IMG/VR virus record: IMGVR_UViG_2579778919_000007
DNA from: a virus
Lineage: Duplodnaviria; Heunggongvirae; Uroviricota; Caudoviricetes
Length of the DNA stretch: 13,175 nucleotides
Reading direction: 5' to 3' (one strand)
Shown here: positions 9,001 through 12,000 of the stretch, one piece after another
Layout: every line of letters begins with the position of its first letter
How positions within the stretch are numbered: position 1 is the stretch's first letter
Program-made: the position numbers

Positions 9001-12000
9001 ACGACGAAGCGCACACTATCCAGCTAATCAAAGCGACTGACTTTGTACCGCCGCCTACGTTGCAACCAACGTTTAACCCGCTGACGGATAATGTTGTCTC
9101 GCTCGACCTGACAACGGGGAGCGAAGAGGATGCGGCTAACGAACTGGTTCACGCTATTAAAGCTGCTGTTAATCGATTCCTAACTGAAAAAGATATTCCG
9201 GTGGCGGAGCTGTGCCTTCTCATCGACCCAGCTTGGTTCAGCATCCTGATGGAACATAAGAAGTTGATGAACGTCCGTTACAGCCGGGATAGTGGCAATG
9301 ATTACGCATGGCGTCGCGTTGGCTATGTCGCTGGGGTGCGAGTTATTGAGCTGAACAGTTACCCGCAGGAAGCCATTACCGCGCATGAACTGGGCGCTGA
9401 TTATGATGTGACCGCAGGGGAAGCGCTGACACGGGCGACGCTGTTCCGGCCTGCGTCTGTACTTGTGACAGTCGAAGCGCAGAGCGTTATCAATCGCCAG
9501 TGGGATGATGAACGCGAAATGACAATGGTGATGGACTCATATCGCCTGTTCAATGTTGGGCTGCGCCGCCCTGACTGCGTTATAAATTTCCGACAAGCTG
9601 CATAACAAAAGGGGCCGAGCCATGAATATTGATGCTTATGCCCCGGAGCTGTTGCGCTCTTTGTTTCGGTACGATGCGAAGACTGGCCGCCTGTTCCATG
9701 CAGTAGACCGGATCGGAGCCAACAAGCGGATTTACGCTAAAGCCGGGGAACTGGCCGACACGGTAACGGACAGCGCCGGATATAGGCGCGTATCTGTCCG
9801 CATCAATGGCAAATCTCATGCGCTATACGCCCACCGTGTCGCCTTCATCATTGCTAATGACGGTATCCCTGCCGGGATGCAAATCGACCATATCAACGCG
9901 GTACGCGATGACAACCGCCTTATCAATCTCCGCACGGTTACGCCACAAGAGAACCAGCACAATTACCGCAAAGCCAAGGGTTATAGCCACCATGCCTGCT
10001 CTGGCAGATGGGAGGCTTACATTCGCGTTGGTGGTGTTCGCCATCACCTCGGCTTATTCACTACCGAAGCGGCGGCGCGTGCTGCGTACCTGAAAGCTAA
10101 AGCCAGATACCATCCGTCAACGCCAGCCGATTTATTGCAGGCTGCCTAATCCTCGGAGGTTCCATTAATGGCTGATGAAAAGCCGATTAGAGCGCTGGCA
10201 GATGATGACCCGCGCCGCCAGCGGTACGCTGAACTGTTGGCGCAGGCTGGCCGCATGACTATTCCACGGCTGCATCCGGGCGATGCTAACAGTGTTATGA
10301 GTCAGCTTGCGACAATGCTCGGAGCACCTGTCCCGATAGTAGGTGCTATGACTGAGCACGCCGCTGCATGGCGTGCCTGTCTTCTGGAGCAAGGGCTTGG
10401 TGATCTTCTGGATGGCTTGAGTAAGCAGGTGCTGACCATCTTCTTTCTGCTCTGCTGGAGAGACAGCGCCTTGCGATTGGCGGGTAAGCAAAAGGAACGG
10501 TTTGCAGCGGCCAGCGAGGGTTTGACCATTGAGCAATACCGGGCAATGCACCCGGCTTACAGAGAGGATAAAGAAAATGATAACCACGATTAAATTAAGG
10601 TGGCGGTACATCGAGCCGCCACCAATGACTGGCGCACTCGCTGACCTGAAACAGTGGGTAATGGATACCGGAGAGCCTGAGCTTGAAGCTAAATTTCGTA
10701 AGCTGCTGGGGCTGATGCGCCGCAATGGTATCAGTGACGAACGTGTTAATGCGATGGCCGCCGAGCTTTATGCTCTGGTATGCCAACGCCAGCGCGAAGA
10801 ATACGAAGCCTGCAAACGGGCTGCATCTGACAGTGGAGGCTTTGAATCATGGTTACACGGACAGACCAACTACTAAGAAAAGCGATGCGAGGCTATCTGG
10901 AATATCTCGGCAACATGCCGCTAGCGGAACGCATTAAAAATTCTGCTGCGTTCGATGATGTGTATCACTTCCTGTTGAATGGTTCAGGACGGCTGGAGTT
11001 GCGCCGCGCTGATGTGGCCGCTGTCCGTGTCTTCCTGTGGAATTATCAATACCGACGCTGCGCGGTGACAGCTAAGCCGCTACGCCTCGCGTCTGCTGTA
11101 TTGGATCACTGTCACCGAACTGGACGTGTGCGCGCTGTGGTTCATCGTTCGGCCAATGCAGCGGAAGGTGGTTATTATGTGGGAAATTTGTGCGGACTCT
11201 CACGAGGTAGCATGTTAAGCATGCTACCTGCCTACCGCCGACAATACAAGGGGTTGGGCGTTATTTATCCAAGACAACATGCGTGATGAGATTATTTCTT
11301 TTATTTTCATTCGGTTATGTGTTGTTGTGGCTGCCTTGTTACTTGCCTATATTTAAAACAATTCTTGACGGATTGACGTAGATTGCGTAGGCTGAGCATA
11401 AAACAGTTTCCTAATATGTCTCCAAACTGAGCTTCAACTTGAGAATACTTCGTTCCTACATCTCCCTTGAAGGGGTAGGAGGATAATATGAACTTTGATA
11501 TGCGTACAAACCAAAATTGTGCATCGTTTTTTAACCCAGCAACCAAGGCGTTTGTCGTCGTTGATTCGTTTGACAACTACGAATTCGATGTGCGTGCTGG
11601 TACTTTATCACGCACTGAATTTGTAGGCACCATCACAGCTTCAAACGATGAAGAGTTGAACAAGAAATTAGCTGAGATCACGGCTGCACACATATGATAA
11701 CTCAACAGCAGATTGATGATTTAGTTGCAGATATTAACGATATCTTGGAAGAAGATAGAGCCAAGCTAAAGATGTCATTTCATTTTGCTGTTGATAGACT
11801 TAATGATCCGCGTAATAAACCTCCAATCACGTTAGCTGAGTTGAGAGTGATTTTTACAAATTTCATTGGACAACACTTGCAGACAATTCTAGGCAAAGAT
11901 GAGGGATTTTCCTTCACTATCAAGTGTCAGAAATCTGGTATTGCTATACCGTGCGCTATAGAGCATGAACTTGATATCGGTGCAAAGTGGGTAGTTCAGC

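Follow-up and report, generated by a model that had tools for sequence, protein, structure and literature searches.

A T7-type capsid gene and a conserved, putative nuclease gene set in a possible phage-satellite island of Escherichia coli

The stretch of viral DNA analysed here (the window; 13,175 nucleotides, IMG/VR virus record IMGVR_UViG_2579778919_000007, Caudoviricetes) corresponds to positions 970503-983677 of the Escherichia coli chromosome NZ_LR536431.1, and carries an integrative element, referred to below as the island. Our subject is a four-gene stretch of this island at window positions 9622-11286. An initial annotation had described it as an HNH endonuclease gene with an AP2-like domain followed by three unknown genes with overlapping ends, and had proposed that these redirect the packaging of a helper phage. 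The features on which our reading depends are the following (window coordinates).

2096-2134, + strand: non-coding box of 39 bp, copy of a helper-type terminal-repeat cut site, predicted cut at 2129/2130.
5919-6125, + strand: truncated homolog of the small terminase subunit (TerS; T7 gp18 type), 68 aa; PF11123 E 3.3e-4 (below cut-off), phrog_891 3.8e-3.
7348-8034, + strand: short scaffolding-protein homolog, 228 aa (410 aa in phage forsur); phrog_1018 5.4e-5.
8610-9605, + strand: major capsid protein (MCP) of T7/phiKMV (Autographiviridae) type; phrog_267 'major head protein' 2.8e-67.
9622-10149, + strand: HNH endonuclease of homing type (HNH_3 core and AP2-like C-terminal DNA-binding domain), 175 aa; PF13392 E 1.1e-13, phrog_99 3.5e-48.
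10168-10593, + strand: p141, a satellite-specific conserved core protein; no Pfam, PHROG, PADLOC or NCBIfam match.
10577-10876, + strand: p99, a satellite-specific three-helix conserved core protein; overlaps p141 by 17 nt.
10849-11286, + strand: p145, derived from Endonuclease VII, 145 aa with an extra N-terminal domain of ~65 aa; PF02945 27.5 bits (cut-off 23.6), phrog_423 2.9e-15.

The four open reading frames (ORFs) at 9622-11286 are co-directional, as first described, and each has a Shine-Dalgarno-like site upstream. The HNH gene begins 16 nt after the end of the MCP gene and lies 18 nt from p141; p99 in turn overlaps p145 by 28 nt. Conservation was assessed in a gene-by-locus matrix of 12 island copies from five genera (Escherichia, Enterobacter, Kluyvera, Trabulsiella and Kosakonia), all of which contained the HNH, p141, p99 and p145 genes, with median dN/dS values of 0.20-0.26. 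Because they are conserved in this way and show such values, which indicate purifying selection, we regard the four ORFs as genuine genes and not chance ORFs. The earlier description of the three small genes holds for the overlapping ends and for p141 and p99, neither of which could be assigned to a family, but not for p145, which belongs to the Endonuclease_7 family. No promoter or terminator signal interrupts the + strand between positions 7000 and 12100, consistent with one late transcription unit, and on balance we lean towards the view that the four genes make up the last portion of a late transcription unit, for capsid and DNA-processing functions, in an E. coli island of ~15 kb.

The window had been thought to contain no recognisable capsid gene. 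This proved incorrect, since the gene directly upstream of the HNH gene encodes an MCP and is itself preceded by a scaffold homolog. The MCP matched solved podovirus capsid structures in the PDB with E values of 4.8e-78 to 2.5e-54. Its best phage match was Escherichia phage forsur (Bonnellvirus, Autographiviridae) with 57.7% identity, the next best at ~44% being Klebsiella KP34-like phages and Ralstonia phage RSB3. Among the islands the MCP is 91-96% conserved and has a dN/dS of 0.09. The scaffold homolog (dN/dS 0.13) aligns to the C-terminal half of the forsur scaffold, up to the C-terminus (BLASTP E 5e-4). In the RefSeq annotation of this genome both proteins are labelled 'hypothetical protein'.

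Beyond the capsid gene, blastn comparison of the island with forsur revealed one non-coding match, between window positions 2092-2169 and forsur positions 25917-25993 (E 7.5e-5). The record of the related phage J8-65 annotates direct terminal repeats of 259 bp, and base 1 of that genome falls inside the matching box (TGGGCCTCCC/TCGACCC, 40713-40729, the slash marking the genome end). The island box at 2096-2134 reads GCTTGAAAATTGCACGCTTATGGTTGCCCCTCCC/TCAAC, with the same CCCCC run ~25 nt further on. There is one copy of the box per island (0 of 200 shuffles), and it was found in 11 of the 11 island loci that reach its position, plus one variant locus (L031). Six Bonnellvirus-like viral contigs keep the box as well; in three of these the genes have only ~66-77% identity to forsur. 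In the viral contigs with enough sequence the box is always flanked by the lysis genes on one side and the early region on the other. Since both halves of the box are single-copy in forsur and in J8-65, which argues against a recurring element, we ruled out its identification as a multi-copy phage promoter. If the island were circularised and cut at the box, its order would run from replication genes through capsid genes to nucleases, like the layout of the helper. Downstream of the box, as also in the phages, comes an A-depleted, GCTGTG-rich, repeat-like stretch (to ~2500) and then an AT-rich promoter-like stretch. We also noted that the J8-65 and forsur records are circularly permuted with respect to each other, and that the ORF of forsur_28, a 'hypothetical protein' annotated at 25940-26455 of the forsur genome (MN850617), spans the A-poor region of the terminal repeat and is probably spurious.

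A second link to the packaging system of these phages is the 68-aa ORF at 5919-6125, which shows similarity of the PF11123/T7 gp18 type. Within its family, 15 of 21 members match PF11123, the best at 2e-8. BLASTP aligned the ORF to forsur TerS with 47% identity over 32 aa (E 2e-5), and hhalign against nine Autographiviridae TerS proteins returned a probability of 82% (E 1.1e-5) over TerS residues 10-59 of 101. We call the homolog truncated because the alignment spans only these residues, so that just the N-terminal ~60% of a TerS is represented. Its dN/dS is 0.11. The product could direct the helper terminase or act as a dominant negative.

For the first of the four genes, the HNH assignment made originally is confirmed, and the AP2-like part remains below threshold (PF00847 E 0.049; PDB WRI1 AP2 E 0.014). 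The nearest solved structure is that of the homing endonuclease I-HmuI (PDB 1u3e, E 2.6e-5), the PADLOC homing endonuclease (HEase) model matched at 1.9e-8, and Pfam gave no PF01844 match at E values up to 1. The catalytic DH..N..N motif is conserved in 12 of 12 copies, all of which keep the AP2-like domain; there are two alleles, distinguished chiefly by their N-terminal third, where DNA identity is ~50%. The closest phage relatives, at 41-48%, lie beside the MCP genes of KP34-like and phiKMV-like Autographiviridae. Judged by its sequence, the protein is a homing-type enzyme and not the gp74-type terminase cofactor found in cos phages and in capsid-forming phage-inducible chromosomal islands (cf-PICIs). 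In a distant island, L034, whose MCP is 59% and helicase 43% identical, a p141-like gene directly follows the MCP gene and three HNH_3 genes lie elsewhere, and in another variant (P0123, on three contigs) a second, degenerate HNH is fused to p141. These varying positions and this fusion lead us to conclude that the HNH gene is a mobile addition within the island family and that the trio of p141, p99 and the Endonuclease VII-like gene is ancestral. Extra HNH_3 genes of the variants (10001-10909 in L031; 1835-3071 and 6712-7230 in L034) include an HNH-p141 fusion that has lost its metal ligands and a 244-aa tandem degenerate HNH; domains derived from homing endonuclease genes (HEGs) are apparently proliferating and decaying in this island family.

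The match of p145 to the Endonuclease VII profile exceeds the cut-off, and the protein aligns with the forsur endonuclease gp55. Among phages it matched 582 records, mostly Autographiviridae endonuclease VII, with identities of at most 37%. The catalytic D-H-x-H and N-A-A-E-G motifs (D40, H41, H43, N62 and E65 of the T4 enzyme) are kept in 12 of 12 copies. PGAP places the p145 start at 10885 here, 36 nt downstream of the upstream ATG used in annotated relatives.

The remaining two proteins appear confined to the islands. Only 13 relatives of p141 were found among 1.84e9 representatives, and neither p141 nor p99 had a tblastn match among 50,697 phages. Over the 12 islands p141 is 85-97% identical (dN/dS 0.20) and always follows the MCP gene, with or without the HNH gene between them; in L034 the trio retains identities of 28% (p141), 39% (p99) and 46% (the Endonuclease VII-like protein). 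The AlphaFold2 model of p141 was poor (pLDDT 62.7), too poor for a fold search. As candidate TerS proteins both were rejected after comparisons at the pairwise, HMM, profile-profile and fold levels: hhalign against TerS gave 0.1% for p141 and 1.2% for p99, PF11123 matched 0 of 22 members of the p99 family, and p99 showed no match to a terminase-like fold, for which an N-terminal helix-turn-helix (HTH) and an oligomerisation core are characteristic. Similarity to PF11123 and Autographiviridae TerS was lacking in p141, p99 and p145 alike.

The limits and distribution of the island were examined in annotated records. The window's copy is bounded on the left by a tRNA-Gly gene (glyU) ~430 bp before the window start and on the right, immediately beyond the integrase, by IS1 together with a truncated core gene, which gives an element of ~13.7 kb here with no further part outside the window; the remainder that had been expected there does not exist. 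Intact relatives are delimited by att repeats of the tRNA 3' end, of 30 bp at glyU or 25 bp at leuX, and measure 14,951 and 14,804 bp at these two tRNA sites. One strain whose att sites are intact is E. coli NCTC11023 (NZ_LS483297, island at 926,348-941,298). Of 5426 complete E. coli genomes, 149 (~3%) contain a relative of the island, at glyU (tRNA-Gly) or leuX (tRNA-Leu). Outside E. coli, island loci were found in Enterobacter, Kluyvera, Trabulsiella and Kosakonia, and homologs of p141 and p99 additionally in Citrobacter, Cronobacter, Klebsiella and Phytobacter. The constant core consists of the box, a serine recombinase, a RecQ-like helicase, g5489, the 68-aa ORF, g6122, g6295 (HTH), g6855 and g7106, followed by the scaffold-like gene, a variable gene (g8194), the MCP, HNH, p141 and p99 genes and the Endonuclease VII-like gene. 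Around this core, island copies differ through exchange of the integrase, of the recombinase allele and of the cargo carried at either end. Within the core, a 78-aa ORF at 6855-7091 is 84-98% conserved in 12 of 12 islands and is unannotated in this RefSeq record.

Searches of the ORFs of the ~13.7-kb element with Pfam, PHROGs and NCBIfam detected no portal, protease, large terminase subunit (TerL), tail or lysis genes, and no head-tail connectors, alpA or pri-rep, in agreement with the original observation that the window holds no TerL or portal. An Rfam scan gave no match. The island therefore shows general features of a satellite, an integrase and att sites without a full set of virion genes, and it also matches the packaging system of a specific helper type through the cut-site box and the TerS-like gene, both pointing to Bonnellvirus. 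As far as sequence can tell, the idea of a satellite that hijacks helper packaging is strongly supported; the role first proposed in it for the four genes is not.

The genes for recombination, integration and putative replication are the following.

2637-3257, + strand: small serine recombinase (resolvase/invertase type); PF00239 6.2e-25, phrog_125 7.3e-38.
3606-5450, + strand: RecQ-like superfamily 2 helicase with an N-terminal extension of ~260 aa; PF00270/PF00271; NCBIfam recQ_fam 1.3e-39, below cut-off.
12093-13175, - strand: tyrosine integrase at the tRNA-distal end; PF00589 4.2e-10, phrog_1 2.1e-32.

The integrase is swapped among islands (35-91% identity), and the serine recombinase exists in the family as two unrelated alleles (identity classes of 25-31% versus 79-97%), each of which travels with its own upstream region (window ~2488-2620). 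The helicase is a candidate replication protein. It is matched over its full length (3606-5450) by the PADLOC model PDLC02858 'DpdF' at 2.7e-268. Membership in a Dpd (7-deazaguanine) defence system was rejected, given an NCBIfam DpdF score of 128 bits against a cut-off of 550 and no other dpd gene. PDLC02858 was apparently built from this island family and may yield false Dpd calls. Low-GC (0.39-0.47) variable cargo lies at both ends (window 1-1610 and 11488-12068) and includes genes for proteins of 259 aa (phrog_19541), 153 aa, 69 aa (phrog_14630) and 124 aa (phrog_14518), with no PADLOC match. At these positions other copies hold DUF3800 or different genes, and the ends may be accessory or defence hotspots.

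Taking these observations together, we marginally prefer the reading that the island is an integrative element of ~15 kb behaving as a satellite of virulent T7-like phages of Bonnellvirus type, such as J8-65 and forsur, with the four genes at the end of its late unit. The fuller proposal, which we hold to be evenly poised, is that it represents a previously undescribed satellite family with its own capsid protein and a shortened scaffold, packaged by means of the cut-site copy and the truncated TerS, in which the nucleases with p141 and p99 process the island's own DNA or sabotage that of the helper. The four genes most likely constitute a nuclease/DNA-processing or helper-interference set and not a TerS/HNH packaging pair. 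No prior description of this island family was found in the literature searched, in which coverage of subscription journals was incomplete, so that one may exist.

According to this proposal, the island would excise upon helper infection and replicate by means of its RecQ-like helicase. The helper terminase would then cut island DNA at the box, with the truncated TerS steering or modulating its action, and the DNA would be packaged in shells of the island's own capsid protein assembled on the helper's portal, with the portal, TerL, core and tail all borrowed from the helper. As the island genome is ~35% of that of the helper, either a smaller shell would be made or a trimer packaged. The HNH enzyme would most likely cut helper DNA near the helper capsid gene, with interference and/or gene conversion as the outcome, or be a tolerated selfish passenger. 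The Endonuclease VII derivative would most likely cleave branched DNA, so as to debranch the concatemers of the satellite ahead of packaging or to attack replication intermediates of the helper; in T7 and T4, concatemers are debranched in this way by gp3 and gp49, respectively. The proteins p141 and p99 could be satellite-specific partner or targeting subunits of this derivative, in keeping with a trio that appears translationally coupled in the window's family and always follows the capsid gene.

Several observations weigh against this reading. The attR repeat is absent from the window's copy. In its place, just right of the window end (25175-26100 of the longer locus L001), lie IS1A and a truncated gene for an aromatic amino-acid transporter, and for these reasons this copy is probably immobilised. 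No packaged or circular island DNA was found among 37 metagenome and seven viral contigs; the 37 metagenome contigs bearing the box of the island were, without exception, either chromosomal or fragments, and the search returned only phage genomes, chromosomal contexts and truncated remnants. The position of the cut within the box relies on the ends of J8-65 as annotated in its record. No second repeat boundary was established on the island: a block at window ~2488-2512 resembles the far boundary of the repeat and is not claimed as such, since it tracks one recombinase allele and is present in 6 of 11 loci. A repeat finder gave no promoter-like family that could represent a promoter motif for the helper (Bonnellvirus) RNA polymerase. 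In p145 the four-cysteine zinc site of Endonuclease VII is not preserved, ligands 2-4 being replaced by T, H and A in 12 of 12 copies (C-x-x-T and H-x-x-A for C-x-x-C and C-x-x-C), and in a distant island variant the catalytic D is replaced by E; nuclease activity is uncertain because of these changes. The HNH-p141 fusion may be an accident of HEG decay, the fused HNH being degenerate. Finally, position and conservation are the only grounds for the roles given to p141 and p99.

Of the alternatives, the one that survives best, although we think it unlikely, holds that p141 and p99 are capsid-assembly accessories, acting in size determination, decoration or the adaptation of the shell to the helper portal and core, and that the HNH enzyme is a selfish homing endonuclease beside the capsid gene. 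It would explain why p141 and p99 come directly after the capsid gene in every variant, L034 included, with conservation nearly equal to that of the MCP. Both proteins are helical, as are the known size-determination proteins, for which P4 Sid, SaPI CpmB and PLE TcaP serve as comparisons, and the HNH relatives in Autographiviridae are free-standing HEGs beside MCP genes. However, p141 and p99 resemble no structural protein, they are translationally coupled to a nuclease gene, and the HNH-p141 fusion hints at a role involving nucleic acid.

It is more doubtful still that the island is a non-transferred defence island or decayed prophage which poisons T7-like assembly with a decoy capsid, scaffold and TerS together with nucleases. 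A truncated TerS and a short scaffold could indeed be dominant negatives, and the nucleases, the variable cargo at both ends, the missing attR here and the unseen packaged form would all fit. Against this, the same core occurs at two tRNA sites with intact att repeats, different integrases and multiple host genera, and conjugation genes are absent. The universally conserved cis-acting copy of the cut site would be of no use to an element working purely as a protein decoy, and the capsid gene is full length and under strong purifying selection. Moreover, one identical reduced gene set has been kept, which is unexpected of a decayed prophage.

The original proposal, in which the HNH enzyme serves the terminase as a cofactor, on the model of cos phages and cf-PICIs, and packaging is redirected by a TerS among the three small proteins, is largely refuted by the sequence and fold tests and now seems very improbable: the HNH gene does adjoin head genes in a satellite-like island, and p99 is near the size of Bonnellvirus TerS (99 versus 101 aa), which is its best forsur tblastn match (E 0.067, in a register inconsistent with BLASTP), but the enzyme is HNH_3/AP2-like and resembles I-HmuI and not HK97 gp74, its position shifts in L034, no TerL accompanies it, neither p141 nor p99 has the similarity or fold of a TerS, p145 is an Endonuclease_7 protein, and a separate TerS homolog lies 3.5 kb upstream.

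If the island is a satellite of the kind we favour, its consequences would extend to phage biology and application. To our knowledge, the satellites known so far exploit temperate cos or pac phages or, among virulent phages, ICP1 and Schitoviridae, and no description of a satellite of T7-like podoviruses was found in the literature searched. The DNA packaged by T7-like podoviruses is of unit length and has terminal repeats, and these phages find wide use in therapy and biotechnology. The island could hijack or block such phages and thereby affect host range in phage therapy, and it would offer a natural system for studying how T7-type terminases recognise the concatemer junction. The four genes themselves supply candidate anti-helper nucleases and two new protein families, p141 and p99.

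Like the I-HmuI-like free-standing HEGs, the HNH gene of the island combines an HNH_3 nuclease with an AP2-type DNA-binding domain beside an essential gene; unlike them it is chromosomal and fixed in 12 of 12 close copies, and homing is putative. The p145 protein shares with phage endonuclease VII (T4 gp49 and the Autographiviridae enzymes) the D-H-x-H ... N-A-A-E-G core and a C-terminal helix motif, but differs in the replacement of three of the four zinc cysteines, in the extra N-terminal domain of ~65 aa and in its identity of at most 37%.

Among satellites, the island is not P4-like. Some satellites carry the cos site of the helper or their own TerS (10.1101/2022.09.08.507074). Among Staphylococcus aureus pathogenicity islands (SaPIs), SaPIbov5 encodes Ccm, a satellite homolog of the helper capsid protein (PMC8569155). 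Ccm co-assembles with the capsid protein of the helper, and the shape is changed as a result. Compared with Ccm and classical SaPIs, the island MCP is full length, 58% identical to the helper type and accompanied by its own scaffold, and the cis site of the island mimics a terminal-repeat boundary, not cos or pac. PLE of Vibrio cholerae, a satellite of the virulent phage ICP1, encodes anti-helper nucleases and HEG-derived domains, namely NixI and CapR (PMC9410903, PMC10055350). The island resembles PLE as a putative virulent-phage satellite with nuclease and HEG-derived genes, a likeness that on the island side is deduced from its genes. It has no sequence relationship to PLE, which uses the ICP1 coat protein with an external scaffold and encodes no capsid protein. 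The putative satellites described in E. coli by Barth et al. (2023) are ~13 kb long and tRNA-adjacent, have tyrosine or serine recombinases, a capsid protein and few cf-PICI genes, and encode RepA_N initiators and decoration, tape-measure and baseplate proteins (PMC10055350). In contrast, RepA_N, decoration, tape-measure and baseplate genes were not detected in the island, which has a T7-like capsid and presumably replicates through its RecQ-like helicase.

A further parallel is with cf-PICIs such as EcCIEDL933, whose gene set comprises alpA, pri-rep, portal, protease, head-tail connectors, TerS and TerL and whose helpers are HNH-dependent cos phages. Such satellites, of ~15 kb and tRNA-associated or chromosomal, encode a major capsid protein of their own and have an HNH gene among the head and packaging genes (10.1101/2022.09.08.507074), features that the island shares. 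Unlike them, it lacks portal, protease, connectors, TerL, alpA and pri-rep; its capsid is of T7 type, its HNH enzyme is a homing-type one, and the helper presumed for it is a virulent podovirus whose DNA has terminal repeats. If our reading is correct, the island would thus embody a third capsid strategy, between classical PICIs and cf-PICIs, in which the satellite provides its own capsid and scaffold proteins and borrows the portal, the terminase motor and the tail.

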